Of a stretch of DNA of 64,000 nt, positions 8,373-61,287 are shown one piece after another. The stretch's first letter is position 1, and each line of letters begins with the position of its first letter. The translations under genes were made by a program, and so were the position numbers. Below the pieces are notes generated by a model. The model was not told where the DNA came from, did not search any database, and saw nothing but the letters and a program-made list of their open reading frames with translations. Origin of the DNA: a virus (taxonomy: Duplodnaviria > Heunggongvirae > Uroviricota > Caudoviricetes); the IMG/VR virus record IMGVR_UViG_3300029705_000015. The stretch is one strand, 5' to 3'.

Positions 8373-10862
8373 ATGGCAGATTCTCTATGGGGTGAAGAAT
8401 TTACTTTCACCCCTCCTCCAAAGCAACAGAAGAAAGTTATTGATAAAGTATCAAAACCTAAGAAGGTAACTACAACAACTGAGAGGGTTGTTAGATCCTC
8501 AAACAAAGTTACAACAGCTGAAAAACTTGCAATGATTGAGGCTGAAGTATACCGAATCTTGGGTGTTTACAAAGATCAAACTGTTGTTCTGAGGACTGAG
8601 GAGGAATTAGCTGAATATATTGATAAAGCAATTCTGAATTCAGTTATTGCAGTTGATACTGAAACAAATAATAGTCTTGTTCCTCTTACATGTAAGATAA
8701 TGGGACTCTGTTTGTATACCCCAGGAATGAAGAACGCTTATATTCCTGTTAATCATGAAAACATTCATACTGGTGAGTTGCTTCCGAATCAGGTTACTGA
8801 GGAGCAGATCCGAAGACAGCTTGAACGACTTACTGATGTTCAGATTATTATGCACAATGGTAAGTTCGACTTTGAGGTTATCAAGTGTACATGTGGTAAT
8901 GAACTTGAAATCTTCTGGGATACAATGATTGCTTCTCGTATTCTTGATGAAAATGAACGAGCAAACTTGAAGCAACAGTATATCAGTAAGATTGACCCTT
9001 CTATTGAGAAGTATTCTATTGAGAAACTTTTTGAAGGAATTGAGTATGCAAAAGTTTCTCCTGAACTTTTTGCATTATATGCAGCTACTGACGCTTTTAT
9101 GACTTATAAGTTGTATGAGTGGCAGAAATCTCAATTTGCTCAGCCAGGTTACGAACGAATGTACAATCTCTTTAAGAATATTGAGATGCCGATTGTTCGT
9201 GTTTGTGCAGATATGGAACTTGCAGGTATTGAGATTGATAAAGAATACGGTGAGCGGTTAAGTGCAAAGTATCACAAGAAACTTGATGCAATTGACAAAC
9301 AGATTGAAGAGACATTACATCAGTATGATCAGATAATTGCAGAATGGAGAAAGACTCCAGAGGCAAATCATAAGGAAAAGAAGCTTAACAAGAAGGGTGA
9401 AGAGACATGGACCAAGTCAAAGAACGAACAGCTCTCTGATCCAATGAGTGTTACAAGCCCGACACAGTTAGCTATATTCTTCTATGATGTTTTGAAGCAT
9501 CCTGTGGTTGATAAGAAGAGTCCTCGAGGAACTGGTGAAGACATCTTGTTGAAGATGGATTATCCCATTGTTAAACTAATCTTGGAAAAGCGTGGCTTAG
9601 AAAAGATAATTGGTACATATGTTGATAAACTTCCTCAATGTGTCATTCCGGAAACTGGTAGACTTCATGCACATTTTAATCAGATTGGTGCTGACACCGG
9701 TCGATTCAGTTCAAGTGATCCCAACTTGCAGAACATTCCTTCTCACTTGAAGGACATTCGTATGCTGTTTAGAGCGGGTGAGGGAAAAGTATTGGTCGGC
9801 AGCGACTTTTCCCAGCAGGAACCGAGATTGCTGTGTTCAATGGCAGGAGATCAAGCAATGATCACTGCTTACAGAAATAAACAAGACCTTTATGCAACAA
9901 TTGCTACAAAGGTGTACAACAACGGCTACTGGGATAACATGGAACACTACGAGGATGGTTCTCCAAATCCCGAAGGAAAGAAGCGTCGTTCAAATTGTAA
10001 GAGTATCCTGTTGGGACTGATGTATGGTCGTGGTGCCGCATCAATTGCTGAACAGATCAATCAGCCAATTCAAGAAGCTCAAAAGATTATTGATACTTTC
10101 TTCAAGGGGTATCCCGCAGTTAAGAAGTGGATTGATAAGACGCAAGCGGATGCAAAGATCAACGGCTATGTTGAAGATCATTGGGGTCGTAGACGTAGAC
10201 TTCCTGATATTTTACGACCTCCTGTGGAGGTTCGGTATTCAGACAAGGATAGAGTTGTTGTACCGTCTGATTTCAATCCGTTACTTGGATCAACTGGCAA
10301 ATATAGTGCAAGCACGCAATCAGATATTGACATCTATAAAGAGAAAGCTCTTGCTACTCGCGGTAGGAAAGAGATGGAAAAGTTAAAGTCTGAAGCTCTT
10401 GCAAAGGGCATCGAAATTCATGAAAACGGTGGATTCATAGCTCAAGCTGAAAGACAATGTGTCAATGCCCGTATTCAAGGTGGTGCTGCAACAATCACGA
10501 AAATTGCGATGAATAAAGTTCATTCCGATCCGGAATTGAGGCGTATGGGATTCAAAATGCTTATCTGTGTTCATGATGAATTGATTGGAGAGTGTCCTGA
10601 AGAATACGCAGAAGCTTGTGGTGAAAGATTGTCGCAAGTTATGATTGAATCTGTAGCTGAGGATGTAGCTTGCCCAATGAAGTGCGATGCCACTATAACT
10701 CGTTATTGGTATGAAGACGAAGTTGCTGCCAAACTGCAAGAGAAATTTGCTGATAAGATTGCACAAGGAGCAGATCCTGAATCAGTTAAACAGCAATTTC
10801 TGGCAGACAATGAAGAACTAACATATGAACAGCTTGAAGGGCTTCTTACAATGAAGTTGTGA
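8373..10862 (+). CDS. polA: Family A DNA polymerase with 3'-5' exonuclease
   Basis: AVDTET, HNGKFD, YAATD; PNLQNIP, SDFSQQEPR, KSILLGLMYG, NARIQG, VHDEL. Confidence 0.95.
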   Translation: MADSLWGEEFTFTPPPKQQKKVIDKVSKPKKVTTTTERVVRSSNKVTTAEKLAMIEAEVYRILGVYKDQTVVLRTEEELAEYIDKAILNSVIAVDTETNNSLVPLTCKIMGLCLYTPGMKNAYIPVNHENIHTGELLPNQVTEEQIRRQLERLTDVQIIMHNGKFDFEVIKCTCGNELEIFWDTMIASRILDENERANLKQQYISKIDPSIEKYSIEKLFEGIEYAKVSPELFALYAATDAFMTYKLYEWQKSQFAQPGYERMYNLFKNIEMPIVRVCADMELAGIEIDKEYGERLSAKYHKKLDAIDKQIEETLHQYDQIIAEWRKTPEANHKEKKLNKKGEETWTKSKNEQLSDPMSVTSPTQLAIFFYDVLKHPVVDKKSPRGTGEDILLKMDYPIVKLILEKRGLEKIIGTYVDKLPQCVIPETGRLHAHFNQIGADTGRFSSSDPNLQNIPSHLKDIRMLFRAGEGKVLVGSDFSQQEPRLLCSMAGDQAMITAYRNKQDLYATIATKVYNNGYWDNMEHYEDGSPNPEGKKRRSNCKSILLGLMYGRGAASIAEQINQPIQEAQKIIDTFFKGYPAVKKWIDKTQADAKINGYVEDHWGRRRRLPDILRPPVEVRYSDKDRVVVPSDFNPLLGSTGKYSASTQSDIDIYKEKALATRGRKEMEKLKSEALAKGIEIHENGGFIAQAERQCVNARIQGGAATITKIAMNKVHSDPELRRMGFKMLICVHDELIGECPEEYAEACGERLSQVMIESVAEDVACPMKCDATITRYWYEDEVAAKLQEKFADKIAQGADPESVKQQFLADNEELTYEQLEGLLTMKL

Positions 10863-10887
10863 TAACTGTTGTATAAATACTTATAAA

Positions 10888-10951
10888 TAAGGGCGGTGTT
10901 CGATCCTACAATCCCTCGCCCTTGATAAAAATATAAATTCAAACTAAGGAG
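10888..10951 (+). ncRNA. Candidate preQ1-I (type I-like) riboswitch
   Basis: Stem aagggcg/cgccctt enclosing G-UUCG...AUC-C, A-rich tail ending AAACUAAGGAG overlapping the SD of a yhhQ-type gene. Confidence 0.6.
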
Positions 10952-10958
10952 ATCAAAT

Positions 10959-11765
10959 ATGACTAGACTAAAGAATTGGATCAAGGATGAAGTAACTGAA
11001 TACAAAAGTTTGTTAAAGAATATTCCGGCGCTACTGCTTGCAGCTTTTTGTTTGGCTGTAGTGTTGATGAATACATTGGCAAACAAGACTATTGTGTCAA
11101 CAGATTGGATTGACATTGATGGAGGTATCCTCTGTGCATGGCTCATTTTTATGGCAATGGATCTAACGGCACAGCATTTCGGACCTCGAGCAGCAACAAA
11201 AATGTCTCTTGTAGGACTTGCTGTAAACCTACTGGTTTGCGGTATTTTTGGAGTTGCATCAATGATCAATATTGGTGGCGGAGCTTGGTCACCTGCATGG
11301 AATTATGCAACAGAAGAAGGATTTAACATTGCTAATGAAGCTGTTAATTCTCTGTTTGCTGGATCCTGGCAAGTTTTGTTGGCAAGTAGTGTTGCATTCA
11401 TTGTTTCTGCAGTTGCTAACAACACAATGAATTGGACCATCGGTAACTTGTTCAAGAACAAGAACACTCCAAGAGCTGAGTATGTAACAAGAGCTTACAT
11501 ATCAACAATGATTGGTCAGTTTGTTGATAATTGGATCTTTAACTTTTTACTATTCATTGTTCTTTTCCAAGATCCAACATGGACGCTGTTGAGTGTAACA
11601 ACTTGTGCAGCCCTGGGCGCACTTGTTGAATTATTCATGGAAATTGTTTTCAGTCCGTTTGGATATAGAGTGGTAACTCGTTGGAGAGCAGAAGCTGTTG
11701 GTCAAGAGTACATTGATACTTATGGTACTGGATTACTTAGATCCAATGTAAACGAGGTGAGATAA
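10959..11765 (+). CDS. yhhQ: VUT/YhhQ-family queuosine precursor (preQ0/preQ1) transporter
   Basis: Multi-TM; MNTLANK, DLTAQHFGPRAA, ISTMIGQFVDNWIF signature. Confidence 0.85.
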   Translation: MTRLKNWIKDEVTEYKSLLKNIPALLLAAFCLAVVLMNTLANKTIVSTDWIDIDGGILCAWLIFMAMDLTAQHFGPRAATKMSLVGLAVNLLVCGIFGVASMINIGGGAWSPAWNYATEEGFNIANEAVNSLFAGSWQVLLASSVAFIVSAVANNTMNWTIGNLFKNKNTPRAEYVTRAYISTMIGQFVDNWIFNFLLFIVLFQDPTWTLLSVTTCAALGALVELFMEIVFSPFGYRVVTRWRAEAVGQEYIDTYGTGLLRSNVNEVR

Positions 11766-11771
11766 TCAGGT

Positions 11772-12038
11772 ATGACAGAATACTTTGACACTTTACTAAC
11801 AGATCCTGTTTCAATCATTGGATTAGTTGCAAGTATCATTGTTCTTGTGTCAATGTGTTTCAATTCATCGACAAAGAGAGGAAACATCCTGATGAGATCA
11901 GTTAATCTGATCGGTAGTATTGTTTCAGTAATCTACGGTATCCTTCTAGGACCGTTAGGTGCGGGAATGATACTTCTCAACGGTGTGCTTGTATTTGTAA
12001 ATTTGTACTATCTGATTGTAACACTTAAGCACAAATGA
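11772..12038 (+). CDS. Small 3-TM membrane protein (YgjV/PQ-loop-like)
   Basis: IIGLVASIIVLVS...MRSVNLIGSIVSVIYG...LLNGVLVFVNLYYL. Confidence 0.6.
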   Translation: MTEYFDTLLTDPVSIIGLVASIIVLVSMCFNSSTKRGNILMRSVNLIGSIVSVIYGILLGPLGAGMILLNGVLVFVNLYYLIVTLKHK

Positions 12039-12044
12039 TATAAC

Positions 12045-12099
12045 AGGCGCAACTATCTGAGGTATAACTTATCTCATTGAGATAGTTGCGCCTATTTTT
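12045..12099 (+). terminator. Terminator-like long hairpin after yhhQ operon
   Basis: aggcgcaactatct/agatagttgcgcct 14-bp stem, inner hairpin, then attttt. Confidence 0.75.
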
Positions 12100-12131
12100 A
12101 ATAAAAATTCTTCCTATTTTCTGGAGAGAAA

Positions 12132-12527
12132 ATGATAAAAGTTTATTCTATTGATGAAGATTATCTTGAAAAATTTTTGAATATGATTCCTGATGAATCT
12201 GTAAAAAATATTCTTGTAACACCGAAAGGAATGTACACAGTTATTTGTAATCATGACCCCGCACATGCAGGTATATATTCATATGTGCTTAGATTACTTG
12301 ATGGTTCTATCAAGCCTGTTAATGAGCGTGTTCTTGAATCATCAGGTTACGATGTACTTAGCTTTTCTTCAGTGAGTCGTAAAATTATTCGTACATATGA
12401 TCTTGGTGTGGAAATACCGAAAGAAAATCAAGAATTCATGATTAACTGCTTACAGAAGTTATTTCGCGATAAAGAGTGTGTATTCTTGAATTCACGTACT
12501 TTCACATTGACACAGTCACTAGTTTAA
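12132..12527 (+). CDS. Hypothetical protein
   Basis: 131 aa ORF with SD ggag. Confidence 0.65.
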   Translation: MIKVYSIDEDYLEKFLNMIPDESVKNILVTPKGMYTVICNHDPAHAGIYSYVLRLLDGSIKPVNERVLESSGYDVLSFSSVSRKIIRTYDLGVEIPKENQEFMINCLQKLFRDKECVFLNSRTFTLTQSLV

Positions 12528-12557
12528 GTTGAATAATTGTAGTTCTTATATTACAAT
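12527..12557 (+). promoter_or_regulatory. AGTTGA-type promoter for dpdA-like gene
   Basis: TTGAAT 12529-12534, 17 bp, TACAAT 12552-12557. Confidence 0.75.
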
Positions 12558-12586
12558 GTTGTTAACTAGAAAATAACAAGGAGGTC

Positions 12587-13798
12587 TTGATGAGTTGTCA
12601 AGTCTACTACTATTCAGGAGCTTATGATCCACAGTTAAAGCGTGACCTGAATATTGATCAGTTGTTTTCTGTGTATCACGAAAAGAAACTGATCATGGAA
12701 ACTGTTACATACAAGAGAGAGCATCCTGAGTATACAGCTAGAATCATGTGTGACAGCGGTGCTTTTACACATTTCCAGCAAATGAAGAAAAAGGGATTGA
12801 CTCTAACTGATCAGGATATCATTGAGTACACTGATACTTATCTTGAGTTCCTCAATGAATGGGGAGATGGTCTTGATTGTTTTGTTGGTGTTGACTCTGT
12901 TCCTGATCCCGAAAATGTTGATCCTACATACGGTGATAAGACCTGGGAAAACTATCTTTATATGTGGGAAAGACTTAATCCTGAAATCCGGCATAAGTTG
13001 ATTCCTGTATTCCACTATGGTGAGGAATGGAAGCACCTTGAAAGATTCTTGGAATACGTTCATCCTGATGGTAGCAAGCTAGATTACATTGGTTTGGCTA
13101 TCTCCTTGGAAGGAACACGTAAAGTCAGAATTAACTGGGGTCAAGATGCAATGAAGATCATTGCAAACAGTAGTAATCCGAATGTTAAGACTCATGCATT
13201 CGGTGTCGGTGTTAAATCTGTTCTTGAACACATTGATGTTTATTCAACAGACGCAACATCTTATCTGAAAAGAGCTGCTTATGGAATGATCAGTATTGAT
13301 GACAAGACAATCTATGTTAGTGACATTCAAAAAGAAATGCTCAGAGGTAACCACTATTCAGAGAAGTCTGCTGCTTATCAGAAATCTGTTGAAGACATTA
13401 TTCATGAGCGTGGATTTACACTTGATCCTTATGAATTGAATTATGAATTCATGGATGCAGATACTGTTAAGTTCACTCTTGATGGTGAGGAGTATCATGT
13501 TCACAAGGATAATGATACAAGTGTTCTTTTGATTCATGGTGATGAAATTGACACCTTGAAGTTGAGCGCAGCTGAGGATGCTCCTGAAGGGGCAGATAAG
13601 TTTTTTGGAACCTGGGAAACAAAGAGGAAAACTTTGATTTTTGACGGCTTAGGAACTGTTCGATTTGATCCTGGTAATGCTCTGGCTACTAACTGTTATG
13701 CAAGAGCAGTTTTCAACATTCAGGATACCGAGAATTGGATGAGTAAGATTCGTGAAATGGCTCCTGCTGTAATTAAAACTAAAGTTGATCTTTGGTGA
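12587..13798 (+). CDS. dpdA: DpdA-like (TGT-fold) base-exchange transglycosylase
   Basis: CDSGAF, FVGVD, PVFHYGE, HAFGV, STDATS match TGT/DpdA catalytic Asp pattern; no bacterial TGT Zn site; linked to yhhQ. Confidence 0.75.
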   Translation: MMSCQVYYYSGAYDPQLKRDLNIDQLFSVYHEKKLIMETVTYKREHPEYTARIMCDSGAFTHFQQMKKKGLTLTDQDIIEYTDTYLEFLNEWGDGLDCFVGVDSVPDPENVDPTYGDKTWENYLYMWERLNPEIRHKLIPVFHYGEEWKHLERFLEYVHPDGSKLDYIGLAISLEGTRKVRINWGQDAMKIIANSSNPNVKTHAFGVGVKSVLEHIDVYSTDATSYLKRAAYGMISIDDKTIYVSDIQKEMLRGNHYSEKSAAYQKSVEDIIHERGFTLDPYELNYEFMDADTVKFTLDGEEYHVHKDNDTSVLLIHGDEIDTLKLSAAEDAPEGADKFFGTWETKRKTLIFDGLGTVRFDPGNALATNCYARAVFNIQDTENWMSKIREMAPAVIKTKVDLW

Positions 13799-13807
13799 GG
13801 TGCTGGT

Positions 13808-14515
13808 ATGAAAGTTTTGATAACTGGAACAAGCTGTGGCGTTGGAAGAGCTGCAGCGGTTAAGTTTCTTGATGAAGGATATGAGGTTGTAGGACTCGAT
13901 GTAAAGGAGCCTTCACTCATTCATGAAAATTATACTCACTACATTTCTGATGTTAGTGATGCAAAGTCTCTTCCTGATGTGGATGGAATCAATTATCTTG
14001 TAAATAACGCAGGAATTGTAACTCCGCAGAAATATGCAATCTTTGTTAATCTGTATGGCTACATCAATGTTCTTGAAAAGTATGGAAATGATCCTGAATT
14101 AAAGAGTATTGTTCAAATCGGTAGTACAGCATCTACAAAGGGCTATGATAACATTCGGTACTGTGCTTCACAAGGTGGTCGAGATGCATTAACAAAATGG
14201 GCTGCGAACAACTTTGGCAAGGATCCTCGACATGTTATTGTTAATTCTTTGAATCTAGATGGTATTGTTGCTGCAGATCCTGAAAGAGGTATTCAAGGAA
14301 CTTCACTAGAACCTGAATTGTATGCACAGCCTGAGTTGATGGAAGAGATTGCAAATCTAAGTGTTCTCAAAAAACTTGCAACAGTAGAGGAGATTGCTGA
14401 ATGGATCTTCTTTCTACTTGTTAAGAACACTGTTATGACTGGTCAGATTATCAACATTGATGGAGAGTTAACAGGTGCGTTCAAGTTTATTCCTTATCCT
14501 GGTTGGAATGATTGA
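13808..14515 (+). CDS. SDR-family NAD(P)-dependent oxidoreductase
   Basis: ITGTSCGVG, VNNAG, GS, Y-x3-Q, MTGQIINIDG. Confidence 0.9.
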   Translation: MKVLITGTSCGVGRAAAVKFLDEGYEVVGLDVKEPSLIHENYTHYISDVSDAKSLPDVDGINYLVNNAGIVTPQKYAIFVNLYGYINVLEKYGNDPELKSIVQIGSTASTKGYDNIRYCASQGGRDALTKWAANNFGKDPRHVIVNSLNLDGIVAADPERGIQGTSLEPELYAQPELMEEIANLSVLKKLATVEEIAEWIFFLLVKNTVMTGQIINIDGELTGAFKFIPYPGWND

Positions 14516-14528
14516 TTGAGAGGTAACT

Positions 14529-15413
14529 ATGGCAAAGATTGTTGGTCTTATTCCTTGTCTCATGCTGGATAACAACAGAGATGCAAACAATGAAGCCATT
14601 GAGCACAACTATAAACATCTGAATCTGGATGCGATTGCAATTTATGATCAAGCCTTTCAAGAAACTGATTATGATGATCGGTTTATCTATGTTGGACATC
14701 AGCCTGATCGTGTTGGATTTACAAACGCTCGTAACGGTTTGTTGAAGTGGTTCTATGAATCAGATTACGATTACGCGTTGTGGTTAGATGCAAATGAGAA
14801 AGTTTCTACTCCAACTATCAATGATACTGTAACTATTGTTGAAGCTTTGAAGGCGGATAAACTGAATCATATTGATGTTATTTTTTCAACTCTCGGGTTG
14901 TGGGTATCTCAGGATAGAATTGTTGCAAAACAGCGTGAAGATTACATGACACATGTTCAATTGATTCCTGCTCTTAACAACAAGAGTTATAACTGGATGC
15001 ATGGACTAATCATGAAGAATTTTAGAAAGTACTATGATCAGCCTGTGTTCATTGATCAGCGATGTGATGTTAAACTTGGCACTCCTGAAGATGTTTATTT
15101 TGCAAGATTGATTCGTAGATACTACAATGCGTATGTTGCTCCAACAATTGTAATCACTAAGCCGAGCTCAAATACATCGACTCATGCAGGAGACGGTAAA
15201 GGAAGATATGTTTATCCTCCTGTTAAGTTTGATGAAGTAGATCAATACATTCTTGAGAATGTAGAAAAAGAAAACCTCAAGATGTGTAACGTTCACTGGT
15301 ATCAAGATTCAGTTAGCCTACCTCGGGTAGAATACATGAAGGAAAAAGTTGCTCCATATAAATCAAGAAAAAAGGAATCGGCTTCAGCTGTAGCTAAAGT
15401 TGATCTATTCTAA
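14529..15413 (+). CDS. GT2/GT-A-like glycosyltransferase
   Basis: GFTNARNGLL...DYALWLDANE resembles GT2 G..AARN...Y(I)LFLD(A)D; later EDVYF. Confidence 0.55.
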   Translation: MAKIVGLIPCLMLDNNRDANNEAIEHNYKHLNLDAIAIYDQAFQETDYDDRFIYVGHQPDRVGFTNARNGLLKWFYESDYDYALWLDANEKVSTPTINDTVTIVEALKADKLNHIDVIFSTLGLWVSQDRIVAKQREDYMTHVQLIPALNNKSYNWMHGLIMKNFRKYYDQPVFIDQRCDVKLGTPEDVYFARLIRRYYNAYVAPTIVITKPSSNTSTHAGDGKGRYVYPPVKFDEVDQYILENVEKENLKMCNVHWYQDSVSLPRVEYMKEKVAPYKSRKKESASAVAKVDLF

Positions 15414-15477: not shown

Positions 15478-16605
15478 ATGATTTGTAGAATCGAAGAACT
15501 TCAGAATTCTTGTAGCAAGATTCTTGCTGCTGTGGATTCAAACGCACTGTCTGTACTCACTGAAACTCTACAGCTCAAAACTGTTGATAAAGATTTGTAT
15601 ATCAGTGTTACCAATCGTGAGTACTTTGCTCAGGTAAAGATTCCAATGAATGAAGAGATTGATTTTCATGCAACTGTTAATGCCAATCTGTTCTTGAAGT
15701 TGGTTTCTCAGATTACCACTGACACTATTGAGATGAACATTGTGGACTCTGCACTTGTATTGAAAGGTAACGGAACTTACAAGCTCCCCCTCATCTTTGA
15801 TGGTGATGCGTTGTTGGAATTACCTGAAATCATGATTGACAATCCTACTGTTAATTTTGAAATTGACAGCTCTGTGCTTCTAAGTATGTTACAGTTCAAC
15901 AGTAAGCAGCTGTCTCAGGGTATCATTTCCAAGCCCATTCAGAAACTTTATTATCTAGACGAGTCCGGAGCAGTTACATTTACTACTGGTGCTTGTGTAA
16001 ATAGTTTCAGTTTGGCTCAGCCGGTAAAGCTTCTTCTTAACGATCGTCTTGTTAAGCTCTTCAAGCTTTTCAAAGGTGAAAAGGTTCAGTTTACTCTCGG
16101 ATATGATGCTATTAGTTCTGATATTATTCAGACAAAGGTGAGATTTGCAACTTCAGACATCATCATAACTGCAATCTTGTCTTGTGATGATACTATGCTG
16201 AGATCATTTCCTGTTAATGCAGTTAGAGGTCGTGCAAATGCAGGATATCCTTATTCAGTAAATATCAATCGTGAAGCACTTATTCAGACTATCAGTCGTC
16301 TGTTACTGTTTAGTTCTGCAAACAGTGCAAAGGATGTTATTAAGCCTTATAGCGTCTTTGAGTTCAAGAAGGATAGCGTTGTAGTTTATGACGCTAAGAA
16401 GGAAAACAAGGAAGAGGTGTATTACACCAATACTACTTGTGACATGGAAAACAATTACAGTGCTCTGTTAGATCTAAACGATCTTAAGCAGACTCTTGAG
16501 ACTTGTACTGAGCAGTATGTCACTATCCACTTTGGTGATGGTCAGGCTGTTGTTCTTTCCAGAGGCAATGTCAAGAATGTTATTCCTGAGTGCATTCTAA
16601 ACTGA
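15478..16605 (+). CDS. dnaN: DNA polymerase III beta-type sliding clamp
   Basis: 375 aa, three-domain periodicity, ISVTNRE, typical clamp size and context. Confidence 0.8.
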   Translation: MICRIEELQNSCSKILAAVDSNALSVLTETLQLKTVDKDLYISVTNREYFAQVKIPMNEEIDFHATVNANLFLKLVSQITTDTIEMNIVDSALVLKGNGTYKLPLIFDGDALLELPEIMIDNPTVNFEIDSSVLLSMLQFNSKQLSQGIISKPIQKLYYLDESGAVTFTTGACVNSFSLAQPVKLLLNDRLVKLFKLFKGEKVQFTLGYDAISSDIIQTKVRFATSDIIITAILSCDDTMLRSFPVNAVRGRANAGYPYSVNINREALIQTISRLLLFSSANSAKDVIKPYSVFEFKKDSVVVYDAKKENKEEVYYTNTTCDMENNYSALLDLNDLKQTLETCTEQYVTIHFGDGQAVVLSRGNVKNVIPECILN

Positions 16606-37739: not shown

Positions 37740-39731
37740 ATGACTGATATTGCAGCTATGAAATCACTTGTTGCAAACATGAATAAGTATAGAGATGCTT
37801 ATTACAATGATAATGAAAGTTTGATTTCAGATCTTGAATACGATAACTTGATGGATCAGCTTCAAGAGCTTGAAAGAACTACAGGAATTGTTCTTGCAAA
37901 CTCACCAACAAGAACTGTTGGTTATGAAGTAAAGTCAGCATTGAAGAAGGTTAAGCATGATCATCCTATGTTGTCTCTTGATAAGACAAAAGACATCACC
38001 GAAATTGTAAAGTTCCTACAGAACAAAGAAACTATTGTTATGGCAAAGATGGACGGTCTAACATGCAGCATCAAGTATGTTGATGGAAAACTTGTTAGTG
38101 CTGAAACACGCGGTGACGGTGTTGAGGGTGAAGATATCACACATAACATGAGGGCTGTTGATGGAGTACCTCAGCAGATAAATCAGAACGGAATTGTAGT
38201 TATCGATGGAGAGTTAATCATTGATGATCTTACATTTGAAAGAGTTCGTGAAAAATTTGTTGATAACAAAGGTAGAAAATACAAGAACTCAAGAAATCTT
38301 GCCGCAGGATCCGTAAGATTGCTGGATAGTTCAGAATGTTCGAAACGAGGCGTTCAATTTGTTGCTTGGAAACCAATTCAAGGATTGAACAACAAGACTC
38401 TTAGCGAAGGATTGTTAAAACTCGAAAGTCTCGGATTTACAATTGTTCCTCATGTTTGTTTAACTGAGATTACAAAAGATGGTTGCCAGTGGGCAGTTGA
38501 TTTCATTGAGCAACTGGCTGATACCTGTGCTTATCCTATTGATGGCTGTGTATTTGGTTTCGATGATGTTAAGTTTGCTGAAGCTCAAGGAATGACTTCT
38601 CATCATTTGAAGAGTCAGATTGCATTCAAATTTTATGACGAACTGTATGATACTGTAGTTCGTAGTATAGATTGGACTATGGGAAAGACTGGTGTACTTA
38701 CACCTACTGCAATCTTTGATACAGTTGAAATTGATGGTACTGAGGTCAGTAGAGCAAGTTTACATAACTTAACCATCATGTCTCAATTAAATGTTCGTAA
38801 GAATTGTACTGCAAGAGTATTTAAGGCAAACATGATTATTCCTCAAATTGATTCAACTGATAATGACGGTGAGGAAGATTTTATCATTCCTGATTCTTGT
38901 CCGGTCTGCGGAGGCTTAACTATTCGAGTACAAGATAATGATTCTGAAATGCTGAAGTGTAACAATCCGAACTGTAAGGGCAAGTTACTTGGAAAGTTGT
39001 GCACATTTGTTTCGAAGCAAGGAATGGATATCGATGGCCTTGGAGAGCAAACTTTAGCTCAGTTTATTGAGCTTGGATACTTGAAGGAATTTAGTGATAT
39101 CTATCGACTCAAGAATTATGCACCCAGACTAATAACTCTTCCTGGATTTGGAAAATCTTCAATTGACAAGATGCTTGCATCCATTGAGAAATCAAGAGAT
39201 GTTACGCTTGAAAGATTGATTGCGGCTGTTAGCATTGACGGTGTCGGATTAGATACTGCTAAGAAAATTTCAAAGTTTTTTGATGGCGATCTAAATAAAT
39301 TCTTGGATGCTCTTACAACAAAGTTTGATTTTAGTAAACTTGATGGCTTCGGTGAGCGTTCAAATGAACTTATCCATCAGTGGTTTGAGTTGAACAAAGA
39401 TCAGTTACTTGATGTTTGTGTGCACACTACAATCAAACAGGATAGTAAACCAGTTGTTGTAGACTGCTCCAGTCCAATCAATGGAAAAACTTTCTGCATT
39501 ACAGGTACTTTTGAATATCCTCGAAAAGACATTCAAAAAGAAATTGAAGCTTGTGGAGGAATCTTTGTTAGTGGTGTAACAAAGAAAACTGATATTCTGT
39601 TTATTGGAGACTGTGACAACTCAAATAGAAAATCAAGTAAGCAGCAGAAGGCTGAGGAATTAGGTATTCCAGTTATTCGGGAAGAACATTTTAGAGCTTA
39701 CTTGAATGGTAACTACGAGGTTAGTGAATGA
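37740..39731 (+). CDS. ligA: NAD-dependent DNA ligase
   Basis: YY...ISDLEYD, MLSLDK, KMDGL, RGDG, CPVCG..CNNPNC, BRCT (TFCITG). Confidence 0.95.
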   Translation: MTDIAAMKSLVANMNKYRDAYYNDNESLISDLEYDNLMDQLQELERTTGIVLANSPTRTVGYEVKSALKKVKHDHPMLSLDKTKDITEIVKFLQNKETIVMAKMDGLTCSIKYVDGKLVSAETRGDGVEGEDITHNMRAVDGVPQQINQNGIVVIDGELIIDDLTFERVREKFVDNKGRKYKNSRNLAAGSVRLLDSSECSKRGVQFVAWKPIQGLNNKTLSEGLLKLESLGFTIVPHVCLTEITKDGCQWAVDFIEQLADTCAYPIDGCVFGFDDVKFAEAQGMTSHHLKSQIAFKFYDELYDTVVRSIDWTMGKTGVLTPTAIFDTVEIDGTEVSRASLHNLTIMSQLNVRKNCTARVFKANMIIPQIDSTDNDGEEDFIIPDSCPVCGGLTIRVQDNDSEMLKCNNPNCKGKLLGKLCTFVSKQGMDIDGLGEQTLAQFIELGYLKEFSDIYRLKNYAPRLITLPGFGKSSIDKMLASIEKSRDVTLERLIAAVSIDGVGLDTAKKISKFFDGDLNKFLDALTTKFDFSKLDGFGERSNELIHQWFELNKDQLLDVCVHTTIKQDSKPVVVDCSSPINGKTFCITGTFEYPRKDIQKEIEACGGIFVSGVTKKTDILFIGDCDNSNRKSSKQQKAEELGIPVIREEHFRAYLNGNYEVSE

Positions 39732-41350
39732 GAAAATCGACTTGGAATGTAAAAGTAAATGGACAGGGAACGCCTGTTAATCAGATAATGAATCAGTTGT
39801 GGGCAAGTAGGGGAATTGATAACCCGGAAGTGTTTATGCATCCAGAAGGATATATATTTCCTTCAACTGATCTAAAAAATATTGAGTCTGCTGGAAAACT
39901 ATTTCAAGAGCATATTGATAAGCATAGTAAATTCTTGATCTATGCAGATGTTGATGCTGACGGATGTTCCTCCGCAGCAATTCTATGTCACTATTTGCGT
40001 AATTTTGATGTTGACATTGAAGTTTACATTAACAATAAGAAAGAACACGGTGTAACGGATGAGTTCTTTGATCGTCCGTATGGTGATGAAAATATTGTAA
40101 TTGTTGTTGATTCTATCAATGATACAATGCGGGAATATGATATTATTCTTGGAGCAGGAATTGATCTAATTGTTCTTGATCATCATATTCCATCTGAAGA
40201 AATTCTTGCCAATCAAGAAAAGATTCATCTTGTAAGTTCAGCAAATGAATATCCAAATCCGCATCTTAGTGGTAGCGGAGTAACTTGGAAGTTTGTAAAC
40301 TATGTTGATCAACTTATGAAGAAAAACTACGCATCTGACTTGATGGATCTTGCTGCTGTTGGAATCATAGCAGATGTCTGTAGCGTTGGCACTGAGTCAA
40401 TGGAAAATCGAGAAATCTGCGACAAGGGTATGGCATACATTTGTAATGTTGGATTGCGTGCTGTACTTGGAACTAACGAAATGAACGCTGACTCAATTGC
40501 ATTTTCCGTGGCTCCTCTTGTTAATGCTGCAAACAGAATGAACGATAACAGACTTGCACTTGATCTGTTTCTTGTTGATAATACTGCAGATGCAAAAAAG
40601 ATTGTTAAGTCGTTAACAAGAATAAAAGAGAAGCAGAAACTTCTTGTTGCTGAGTTGTTTGAAGGATTTGAAGAACAGGCACAAGAGCAGCTTAACAGGA
40701 AGTGCATGTATTTCATTGTTGATGAAACCTGTGGAACCCTTGGTGGACTTCTGGCAACAAAAGCATCAGATAAGTGGAACAGACCTGTTATTGTTGTACG
40801 AGAAACCGATAGGGGGTACGCAGGGTCAATGCGAGCCACTGGAGTTGATAATTTCAGTGAGATTGTTAATGATTCTGGTCTTGGTGAGTGCGCAGGCCAT
40901 GAGAATTCAGCTGGAATCCTGATTCCTTTTGAAAACTTTGTCGCATTACAAGATCACATAGAAAATGCATTAACAGGAATGACTGTAACAACAGAACAAG
41001 ATATTGATCTATATGTTGAGCGTATGCAGATAACACCATTCCTGATTGGCAAGCTGCGTGAATTCAACAGAATAGCAGGGCCCGGGTTCCCAACAATAAA
41101 AGTGCTAATTGAGAATGTTTCAAAATATACTGTTAAACCAATGTCTCAAGGAAAGCATCTTTGTATTGAAGTTCCTGACATGAAATTCTTGTACTGGAAT
41201 TTTAATAAGTGGGACGATATTGCCGATGAAGGAGTTCTTTCTGCAGTCGGAACTCTTGACGAGTCATTCTTTGCTGGAAAAAGATCCACTCAGATGATTA
41301 TGCAGGATTATATATTTGAAGCACTACCAACAAAGGCAAATCTGTGGTAG
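39728..41350 (+). CDS. recJ: RecJ-like ssDNA exonuclease
   Basis: YADVDADG, VVDS, LDHH, NAANR, GSMR, AGHENSAG. Confidence 0.9.
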   Translation: MRKSTWNVKVNGQGTPVNQIMNQLWASRGIDNPEVFMHPEGYIFPSTDLKNIESAGKLFQEHIDKHSKFLIYADVDADGCSSAAILCHYLRNFDVDIEVYINNKKEHGVTDEFFDRPYGDENIVIVVDSINDTMREYDIILGAGIDLIVLDHHIPSEEILANQEKIHLVSSANEYPNPHLSGSGVTWKFVNYVDQLMKKNYASDLMDLAAVGIIADVCSVGTESMENREICDKGMAYICNVGLRAVLGTNEMNADSIAFSVAPLVNAANRMNDNRLALDLFLVDNTADAKKIVKSLTRIKEKQKLLVAELFEGFEEQAQEQLNRKCMYFIVDETCGTLGGLLATKASDKWNRPVIVVRETDRGYAGSMRATGVDNFSEIVNDSGLGECAGHENSAGILIPFENFVALQDHIENALTGMTVTTEQDIDLYVERMQITPFLIGKLREFNRIAGPGFPTIKVLIENVSKYTVKPMSQGKHLCIEVPDMKFLYWNFNKWDDIADEGVLSAVGTLDESFFAGKRSTQMIMQDYIFEALPTKANLW

Positions 41351-60894: not shown

Positions 60895-61287
60895 ATGGCA
60901 AAGATTATTTACAAGTTAGGTCCACAATGTAGTGGAAAAACAGCTTGGTTGTGTCAGCAAGCTAAACGAGAAGCCGGAAAAGAAATTGTTTACTACACCT
61001 CTCCTGAACGAGTACGACATGCAAACAGTTTTGCAGAAAAATATGAATATATGTATACAGGAGTCTGCTCATTCGATGTGGTAACAAATCCTGATGATAT
61101 TGCGTTAGACACAAGAGTCATCTTGATTGATGAGTTTATGCGGATTCCTGATGCATCTCAAGTTGTACATAAGTTTGAAAACAACGATAATGTCACAATC
61201 TATGTTGTATTAACTCAAGAGGATTATGACACCGAAAACATTGAAACTCCCAGTAAACAAGATTGGGATCAGTTATCATTATTCTAA
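60895..61287 (+). CDS. Small P-loop NTPase (thymidine-kinase-like) ending QLSLF
   Basis: Own translation: GPQCSGKT Walker A, VILIDEF Walker B, 130 aa. Confidence 0.7.
   Translation: MAKIIYKLGPQCSGKTAWLCQQAKREAGKEIVYYTSPERVRHANSFAEKYEYMYTGVCSFDVVTNPDDIALDTRVILIDEFMRIPDASQVVHKFENNDNVTIYVVLTQEDYDTENIETPSKQDWDQLSLF

Follow-up and report, generated by a model that had tools for sequence, protein, structure and literature searches.

7-Deazaguanine modifications of DNA are a major route by which phages escape restriction, and all those known to us in phages carry small substituents made from 7-cyano-7-deazaguanine (preQ0) that is synthesized de novo. The stretch analyzed here, IMG/VR record IMGVR_UViG_3300029705_000015 (Caudoviricetes; 64,000 nucleotides, hereafter the window), contains a leader RNA and six open reading frames (ORFs) between the genes for a family A DNA polymerase (polA) and a sliding clamp. 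Among the products are a transporter of the VUT/QPTR (YhhQ) family, a DpdA-type transglycosylase, an SDR (short-chain dehydrogenase/reductase), and a protein with a glycosyltransferase (GT) fold. An earlier note, made before any database search, had described these six ORFs, and their coordinates, the motifs quoted, and the family assignments all hold. On balance, we favor reading the whole cassette, in four steps from control of import to a possible final decoration, as a salvage-fed DpdA system that lies within the replication operon of an uncultured gut phage and replaces guanine by a 7-deazaguanine in the phage DNA.

The closest characterized DpdA is that of Streptococcus phage Dp-1, whose DNA holds the deoxynucleoside of 7-aminomethyl-7-deazaguanine (preQ1), dPreQ1 (Hutinet et al. 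2019, PMC6884629). The order of transporter gene, dpdA, and then genes for DnaN, RecU, and RecA is common to Dp-1 and the window; in Dp-1 the transporter gene directly precedes dpdA, and the DpdA protein ends in ...RRLF. Unlike the window, Dp-1 has its own preQ1 genes (FolE, QueD, QueE, QueC, and QueF) and a transporter of the QueT type, and it has no VUT, SDR, or GT. A third group of phages was described in the same work as having DpdA without preQ0 genes, and was presumed to depend on its hosts or on import; YhhQ is encoded by some phages, according to the same work (PMC6884629). No correlation or partner enzyme was reported for that group, whereas the transporter of the window represents a distinct subtype that is locked to an SDR and a leader, and often to a GT.

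The DpdA-type protein

The fourth ORF of the interval (12587-13798, + strand; 403 amino acids) matched phrog_887, 'queuine tRNA-ribosyltransferase', at 9e-35, and the motifs DSGAF, PVFHYGE, HAFGV, and STDATS recorded for it as DpdA-type are all present. Its closest characterized relative in tblastn is the Dp-1 DpdA (30% identity, 1e-26); other phage relatives are those of 9g (6e-8), CAjan-like phages, and others. Across 22 diverse homologs, neither D56 (in DSGA) nor D222 (in STDATS) varies, and we take them to be candidate equivalents of the catalytic pair Asp102/Asp280 of tRNA-guanine transglycosylase (TGT). D56 in DSGAF aligns to DSGGF of TGT, and D222 was equated with Asp280 by motif position only. 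A beta-rich insertion of ~90 amino acids (approximately residues 282-361) is found in orthologs of 395-411 amino acids and is missing from those of 312-319 amino acids; its presence does not correlate with that of the GT.

A protein of this fold might modify tRNA, of either host or phage, rather than DNA, and structural comparison by itself points that way: an AlphaFold2 model (pLDDT 90) gave tRNA-guanine or archaeosine transglycosylases as all of its best 50 Foldseek matches in the PDB, at E values of 2.5e-7 and weaker and a TM score of ~0.43. The sequence points elsewhere. No Pfam TGT match was obtained at E 0.01 or better, and a PDB sequence search returned no match. When the DpdA family was compared by hhalign with a genuine Collinsella tRNA TGT, the DSGAF/DSGGF patch aligned alone, at a probability of 1.3%, which is too weak for mapping pocket residues; no claim on preQ1 versus queuine specificity is therefore made from sequence. 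The zinc motif CxCxxC...H is not visible in the protein, its homology to the Dp-1 and 9g DpdA proteins is clear, it occupies the slot between polA and the clamp gene, and it has a clamp-binding-like tail (see below). The comparison with DpdA and tRNA TGT that the earlier note had called for thus places the protein with phage DpdA. We regard it as very likely that it acts on DNA, and consider a tRNA substrate exceedingly unlikely.

Supply of the modified base

The slot running from polA through dpdA to the clamp gene is conserved across 79 DpdA-anchored phage loci. De novo genes (QueC, QueD, QueE, FolE) occupy it in 36 loci, none of which has the SDR; the SDR occupies it in 28, none with de novo genes and 27 with VUT as well; the slot of the other 15 has neither. 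VUT and SDR occur without the GT in 16 of the 79 loci, and GT orthologs are present in 12, all of which have the SDR. The window had been said to lack FolE, QueD, QueE, QueC, and QueF, and a Pfam scan of ~57 window ORFs agreed. Five relatives, at 92-100% completeness, yielded no QueC, PTPS, or GTP cyclohydrolase I; together with the presence of VUT in the operon, this bears out the proposal that the module is fed by import and not by de novo preQ0 synthesis. We regard a salvage-fed supply as highly probable. Strict exclusivity of the SDR and the de novo genes was considered and dropped, because the two coexist in phage L100, found via its SDR, and in one Lachnospiraceae genome.

Two side observations concern other supply types. 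In L100 (4254-10663), FolE is followed by a 262-amino-acid ORF and then by a Formyl_trans_N protein, likely a DpdN-type formyltransferase. Ten 20-kb loci (L044, L071, L072, L074, L076, L078-L081, and L083) combine DpdA with QueD, QueE, and FolE and have no QueC, a type that yields 7-carboxy-7-deazaguanine (CDG) or 7-deazaguanine.

The VUT-SDR pair in phages and bacteria

The transporter gene (10959-11765, + strand) passes Pfam as Vut_1 (79.6 bits, 4e-22, against a gathering cutoff of 27.2); its score for TIGR00697, 'queuosine precursor transporter', is 46.2 bits and lies under the NCBIfam cutoff of 50.95. The SDR gene (13808-14515, + strand) follows dpdA and encodes a protein of classical size (235 amino acids; Pfam adh_short and adh_short_C2, 3e-13). 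In bacteria, each of the 80 loci examined in GTDB genomes (L097-L180) has VUT directly upstream of an SDR encoded on the same strand, with neither GT nor DpdA nearby. The hosts are species of Collinsella (C. aerofaciens and others), Olsenella, Atopobiaceae, and some Lachnospiraceae, Oscillibacter, and Clostridiales; G011 C15:41257-42516 is one example position. When 81 Coriobacteriia genomes were sampled evenly, seven had the SDR, each time adjoining a VUT that scores ~80 bits against Vut_1, like the transporter of the window, whereas the five VUT genes without an SDR were canonical (127-155 bits). Because the SDR is confined to the ~80-bit transporters (7/7 versus 0/5), the SDR-linked transporter is a distinct, diverged subtype, which agrees with the window VUT falling short of the TIGR00697 cutoff. 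VUT and SDR form one two-gene unit, probably for salvage; the pairing is observed, and the chemistry discussed below is proposed from it. No mention of the pairing was found in the literature searched on queuosine-precursor transporters and salvage. From the pairing we infer that TGT-type enzymes could use the imported compound only after a redox reaction.

The earlier note had named, as one possible task of the SDR, making or altering the sugar, and the corresponding alternative joins SDR and GT, through the sugar or its donor, as a decoration unit downstream of DpdA. The SDR does adjoin the GT in the window, both are always found with DpdA in GT-positive loci, and there are weak echoes of nucleotide-sugar epimerases (Pfam Epimerase, 0.0017; phrog_540, 4e-5). 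The protein is nevertheless of classical size and not an extended nucleotide-sugar SDR. Moreover, the SDR occurs without the GT in 16 of the 79 DpdA-anchored phage loci, including three complete GT-less genomes, and in all 80 bacterial operons, where it pairs with the transporter. More distant phages (L037, L038, L041, L042, L054, and L055) place an SDR between VUT and DpdA. The sugar role was thus not borne out and is very unlikely; the SDR probably belongs to salvage and not to sugar metabolism.

The cofactor motif TGTSCGVG (TGTxxGxG) and NNAG are invariant in 13 members of the SDR family, and D31, S106, Y118, Q122, and R125 are also invariant. Residues 118-125 read YCASQGGR (YxxSQxxR) in place of the catalytic YxxxK. 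Judged by its position in the motif, R125, one helical turn past the lost Lys, looks like a relocated catalytic basic residue. The SDRs of the six distant phages just listed are of the Lys type; distant phage SDRs and bacterial orthologs keep YxxSK, and Lys-type relatives have Val or Met at the position equivalent to R125. D31 likely indicates a preference for NAD(H). The family comprises 88 clusters at 50% identity in metagenomes (scoring 1e-30 or better); longer proteins among the representatives were tandem SDRs or contained a MatE fragment only, and were uninformative with respect to fusions.

A salvage pathway of related logic is that of Clostridioides difficile, in which, as reportedly described by Yuan et al. 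in 2019, queuine is salvaged via preQ1 by means of a transporter, a queuosine hydrolase, and a queuine lyase. There, too, a finished queuosine-type compound is imported and cut back to preQ1 for a preQ1-specific transglycosylase; the C. difficile system uses a radical-SAM lyase and an ECF transporter, whereas the window has an unrelated SDR and a VUT transporter, for which the reaction is a proposal. Our best guess is that the SDR would oxidize queuine at its allylic hydroxyl in an NAD+-dependent reaction, after which preQ1 would be lost by beta-elimination; in function, the SDR would then correspond to queuine lyase. Four lines of evidence led to this proposal: D31 suggests NAD+; hosts with QueA need preQ1; QueF coexists with the SDR twice; and relatives of the window phage contain a deoxyribosyltransferase-like gene (see below). 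The need for preQ1 follows from four VUT-SDR Coriobacteriia genomes that contain TGT and QueA and no genuine QueC or QueF, and which must therefore obtain preQ1 from an outside source. That the SDR performs this particular reaction, releasing preQ1 from imported queuine, is nonetheless rather doubtful.

The main alternative makes the SDR a non-homologous replacement for QueF, with VUT importing preQ0 and the SDR reducing its nitrile to preQ1, although we know of no precedent for nitrile reduction by an SDR. The same four Coriobacteriia genomes would fit, since they need preQ1 and have neither QueF nor QueC, and YhhQ-family members are known to import preQ0 (PMC5372724). However, phage L100 and one Lachnospiraceae genome have the SDR alongside QueF, D31 suggests NAD(H) whereas QueF uses NADPH, the SDR has no conserved Cys for a thioimide intermediate, and the transporter is a diverged subtype and not a canonical YhhQ. 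Nitrile reduction is consequently less likely still than queuine oxidation.

The leader RNA

The transporter gene is preceded by a riboswitch-like leader (10888-10958, + strand), consisting of a conserved, covarying hairpin whose stem a G-C pair closes and whose loop opens with UUCG and ends in ..AUC or ..CAC, and an A-rich tail that runs into the Shine-Dalgarno sequence. This layout, with compensatory changes in the hairpin, is common to ~20 distinct phage loci upstream of VUT, and the same element is found upstream of bacterial VUT-SDR operons of Collinsella, Olsenella, and Lachnospiraceae; examples besides the window are L039:2283-2332 and L146:4190-4277, with ~20 others.

Pairing was assessed on a flush-left alignment of the leaders (A8), three rows of which are out of register, making the pair counts conservative. 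The 6-bp helix P1 pairs in 87.5% of cells, compared with 54% in shuffles, and both sides change in five of its six pairs. Its covariation score is 0.757, compared with 0.18 for shuffled alignments; none of 500 shuffles reached it, and sliding the partner columns gave 0.09-0.24. With the leaders aligned by MAFFT and left unedited, RNAalifold predicted no pairs, and two further MAFFT alignments were misaligned, leaving A8 as the only usable one.

Two forms of the leader can be distinguished. The short-loop leader of L039 has as its best Rfam family PreQ1 (RF00522), at 22.8 bits (E 0.0066), which does not reach the gathering score of 39. The long-loop form, seen in the window and in Collinsella, has a loop of 15-19 nt that often contains a mini-helix of its own (UUCG-N4-CGAA, for example), and matches no Rfam family; it may be an uncatalogued riboswitch variant. 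At gathering scores, Rfam gave no match in the window or in 19 phage and bacterial loci. As judged from the sequences, the architecture resembles that of preQ1-I riboswitches, of which the type III example of E. coli controls yhhQ by hiding the Shine-Dalgarno sequence (PMC11625349). Like the leader described here, that element has a small hairpin, an A-rich tail, and a Shine-Dalgarno sequence ahead of a YhhQ-family gene; the window and bacterial leaders differ from it in their longer loop and in lying under every Rfam threshold. The covariation of the leader, taken with the preQ1-I control of yhhQ, would tie the transporter to 7-deazaguanine sensing.

The glycosyltransferase

The last ORF before the clamp gene (14529-15413, + strand; 294 amino acids) contains the motif ARN...WLDANE, as noted earlier, and the GT-A fold suspected for it was modeled confidently: AlphaFold2 gave a GT2-like GT-A structure with pLDDT 90 and pTM 0.88 from an alignment of 32 sequences. 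Foldseek matches to the model had a probability of 1.00, E values from 1e-7 to 3e-9, and TM scores of 0.45-0.54, and comprised, in the PDB, AvpGT (9jma, 9e-9) followed by TarP, TarS, and RmlT and, in Swiss-Prot, IcaA, MftF, and RfbF. A search found 60 clusters of this small family, and no member has a Pfam domain. Its invariant residues include R68, N69, D81, D87, N89, H158, and D188; the last lies in a PEDVYF motif and is likened to the 'ED' catalytic base of GT2 enzymes by motif resemblance only. Two distant GT-A homologs that have DDD at the position aligned with D87-A88-N89 (hhalign 97% and 96%) also lie beside DpdA, with other supply modules. As a separate observation, the QueC-less locus L076 has a distant GT-A homolog between DpdA and QueD.

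The earlier note had called for a neighborhood survey of dpdA, SDR, GT, and yhhQ. The four recur together in 17 distinct contigs, rearranged gene orders included, which is far above chance, and GT orthologs were found only beside DpdA and SDR (the same number of contigs). Among 14 GT-anchored IMG/VR loci, from phages of 96-205 kb, DpdA, SDR, and GT are present in all 14, usually with VUT; four of these loci have the order DpdA-SDR-GT-VUT, unlike the window. The GT is a lineage-specific, optional add-on. Its absence from the three complete GT-less genomes, which have terminal repeats, is based on a search that recovered the GT in two positive controls.

Five contigs (L002/L019, L003, L004/L024, L005/L034, and L015) carry a further pair of genes between the GT and clamp genes, one for a CofD-like protein (PF01933, 3e-24; 570 amino acids) and one for a MobA/CofC-like nucleotidyltransferase (NTP_transf_3); coordinates are L002:10912-13371, L005:10904-13314, L004:10875-13321, and L015 from 12793 onward. 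The window does not have the pair, and the pair never occurs without the GT, which suggests a phosphodiester-linked extension of the GT product. In CofC/CofD chemistry, a phospho-acid is activated with GTP and then transferred to a hydroxyl. The nested series of DpdA alone, with VUT-SDR added, with GT added, and with CofD/CofC added would look like a stepwise hypermodification pathway. The chemistry and the series together make it more likely that the GT product is a substituent with a hydroxyl, and do not indicate its position.

Clamp-binding-like C termini

DpdA ends in ...KTKVDLW, and the GT ends in ...AKVDLF after the basic linker PYKSRKK; a C-terminal xL[FW] after a basic linker is conserved in both families. 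Within the window, an L[FW] C terminus is found in only 4 of the 91 ORFs of at least 90 amino acids: DpdA, the GT, a RecJ-like protein, and a 130-amino-acid ORF. The RecJ-like exonuclease (39728-41350) ends in ...TKANLW and the small ORF (60895-61287) in ...DQLSLF, DQLSLF being a textbook beta-clamp motif. The shared endings suggest that this phage has a group of proteins that dock on its clamp. The tails also co-vary within a phage: both DpdA and GT end in ..G(S/G)LI in L095, and both in ..LF in L076.

Complex prediction for a clamp dimer with GT residues 240-294 scored 0.58, against 0.10 for the best of three controls, and lends weak support. During calibration, 58 of 80 solved complexes passed, as did 2 of 110 mismatched pairs; the passes at 0.60 or less comprised only 7 of the 80 solved complexes, and both mismatches. 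The runs agreed in at least 38% of contacts, and partner pLDDT was at least 37. Since clamp-peptide complexes have already been solved, the pass may reflect likeness to known structures. In our view, the tails are evidence of moderate weight that both DpdA and the GT work on DNA at the replisome.

The target of the glycosyltransferase

The glucosyltransferases of T4 hydroxymethylcytosine (hmC) and base J and the tRNA galactosyl- and mannosyl-queuosine transferases all add a sugar to an already modified nucleic-acid base; the tRNA enzymes act on the side chain of a 7-deazaguanine, and the T4 enzymes have the GT-B fold. To our knowledge, there is no case in which a purine of DNA has been given a sugar in this way. 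The GT of the window showed no sequence similarity to any of these enzymes in family and PDB sequence searches, and no paper describing a glycosylated 7-deazaguanine in DNA was found. Substitution of the aminomethyl group has a precedent in DpdM and DpdN, which place a methyl or formyl group on the preQ1 aminomethyl in phage DNA (mdPreQ1 and fdPreQ1; PMC10516641), although neither group is a sugar and the folds of both enzymes differ from that of the GT. That the GT acts on the inserted base, putting a sugar on the 7-deazaguanine, is in our view a serious possibility that falls somewhat short of probable. What speaks for it is contextual: the GT co-occurs strictly with DpdA, the two proteins have similar clamp-binding-like tails, and relatives carry the additional CofD/CofC-like genes.

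Two other roles were weighed against it. The GT might glycosylate a different target, such as another position in DNA, a protein of phage or host, or, as TarP of prophages does, an envelope polymer, in which case its linkage to dpdA would reflect a shared operon or timing. Its best structural matches do include the wall-teichoic-acid glycosyltransferases TarP, TarS, and RmlT, and it is optional in the lineage. Yet its orthologs are never found away from DpdA-SDR and its distant homologs lie beside DpdA in unrelated supply modules; it has no membrane segment or TarP-type oligomerization domain, and its basic linker and tail are like those of DpdA and RecJ. We consider a different target unlikely. 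A GT acting on hydroxymethyl pyrimidines was rejected, as the window has ThyX only, and neither a ThyA-like hydroxymethylase nor another such pathway.

The second possibility is that the GT, together with the CofD/CofC-like proteins where present, decorates the free base or nucleoside and that DpdA inserts the decorated base (compare the N-glycosylated preQ0 natural products). AvpGT/NucGT enzymes belong to GT2, and AvpGT, the top Foldseek match, adds glucose to free nucleosides at the ribose 3'-OH, 2'-deoxyribose not being tolerated (PMC11959488); its substrates include the 7-deazapurine nucleoside tubercidin. In addition, the CofD-like and CofC-like proteins have no clamp tail. However, AvpGT is only 15% identical to the GT and its margin over other GT2 matches is negligible (9e-9 versus 3e-8, TM ~0.45-0.5), so that it serves as a lead only. 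The conserved clamp-binding-like tail of the GT argues for action at DNA, and the same DpdA lineage works without the GT, which means that its pocket accepts an undecorated base. Decoration before insertion is, we believe, improbable, and more so than a different target.

A proposed pathway and the evidence against it

In the pathway that we propose, a preQ1-I-like leader would control translation of the diverged YhhQ-family importer, a step supported by comparison of the leaders. The VUT-SDR unit would then turn an imported queuosine-related compound into a base fit for TGT-type enzymes, most likely preQ1. DpdA would swap guanine in DNA for the supplied base, probably while tethered to the clamp via KVDLW. 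Finally, the GT, with its KVDLF tail, would take a sugar from a nucleotide-sugar of the host and attach it to the inserted base, perhaps at the aminomethyl group of dPreQ1, giving a new, restriction-blocking hypermodified purine. A more extensive combination, in which GT-positive phages carry a sugar-bearing 7-deazaguanine that is CofC/CofD-extended in some, VUT-SDR supplies preQ1 and also serves bacterial tRNA queuosine, and the leader is a riboswitch variant outside Rfam, is offered as tentative only.

A number of observations weigh against this pathway. At the leader, the window had no Rfam match at E 10 or better, and permissive Rfam scans found no preQ1 family in the window leader, L097, or Collinsella L146; with no Rfam preQ1 match for the window and bacterial leaders, the ligand could differ. 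At the SDR, the catalytic Lys is replaced by the invariant Q122, with the invariant R125 three residues on. The GT had no Pfam, NCBIfam, or PHROG family match, its family profile gave a chance match only against PDB sequences, and it has D87-A88-N89 (D and N invariant) where a DXD metal motif would be expected. Furthermore, no sugar-nucleotide genes were found in the window, and the GT is dispensable, the three complete genomes without it having VUT, SDR, and DpdA. With regard to supply, the VUT-SDR genes of phage L100 adjoin QueC-QueF-QueD-QueE-FolE, so supply modules do coexist, and one Lachnospiraceae genome has VUT-SDR plus the full pathway, including QueC and QueF. Note also that the phage loci come from related phages, and the counts given above are not counts of independent events.

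Genome context and neighboring genes

All genes of the 64-kb window are on the + strand, and the region around the cassette is the phage replication module. It encodes an SNF2 helicase, a DnaB-type helicase, a primase-like Toprim protein, and the family A polymerase (polA, 8373-10862; DNA_pol_A 1e-86). Also encoded are the beta-type clamp (15478-16605; phrog_947 9e-16; the match to the DNA_pol3_beta N-terminal domain, at 23.7 bits, lies under the cutoff of 24.4), RecU, RecA, clamp-loader subunits, SbcCD-like proteins, a single-stranded DNA-binding protein (SSB), an NAD-ligase, and the RecJ-like protein. ThyX and Thg1 are encoded further along the window. In some relatives polA is interrupted by HNH and NUMOD3 ORFs, and in several, large DUF7487 ORFs (~630-680 amino acids) are wedged between genes of the module (L015:7163-9067 and 9842-11890; L016:6945-8840; L019 from 8411 onward; L030 from 13841 onward). 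All of these are probably mobile homing elements.

Two ORFs lie between VUT and dpdA in the window. TM88 (11772-12038, + strand) is an 88-amino-acid membrane protein of three helices, with homologs in the same module of L001, L002, L012, L015, L016, L021, and other relatives, often beside VUT; the Atlas gave weak leads to the three-helix families Imp-YgjV, POPDC, and CBU_0592. The 131-amino-acid ORF (12132-12527, + strand) had no family match, no usable Atlas match, and no homolog at its position in the relatives examined, and is probably not part of the cassette system. Its position is filled in several SDR-type relatives (L015:5063-5551, and L029-L034 and L057, in which it lies between VUT and DpdA) by a nucleoside 2-deoxyribosyltransferase-like gene (PF05014, 6e-20), whose product may free the base from an imported nucleoside or nucleotide.

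The stretch occurs in animal feces and gut metagenomes from 17 studies, as expected for the gut habitat that had been assumed. Among 50,697 phage records, there was no DNA match to an isolate phage, and tblastn found no GT or SDR homologs.

Significance

A DpdA route fed purely by scavenging, through a transporter-dehydrogenase pair, was not encountered in the literature searched, and neither was a DNA-directed GT-A enzyme tied to DpdA, which predicts a sugar-bearing purine in DNA, nor a riboswitch-like leader that lies outside current Rfam models and is common to phages and bacteria. If the proposed decoration is real, these phages would provide the first example of DNA with a glycosylated purine. 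Cultured gut bacteria, Collinsella aerofaciens ATCC 25986 among them, commonly have the VUT-SDR unit too, which is a candidate for a missing queuosine-precursor salvage enzyme. The system bears on the traffic of queuine, a micronutrient, in the gut, and on how the DNA of these phages behaves toward restriction enzymes, Cas nucleases, and sequencing chemistries.

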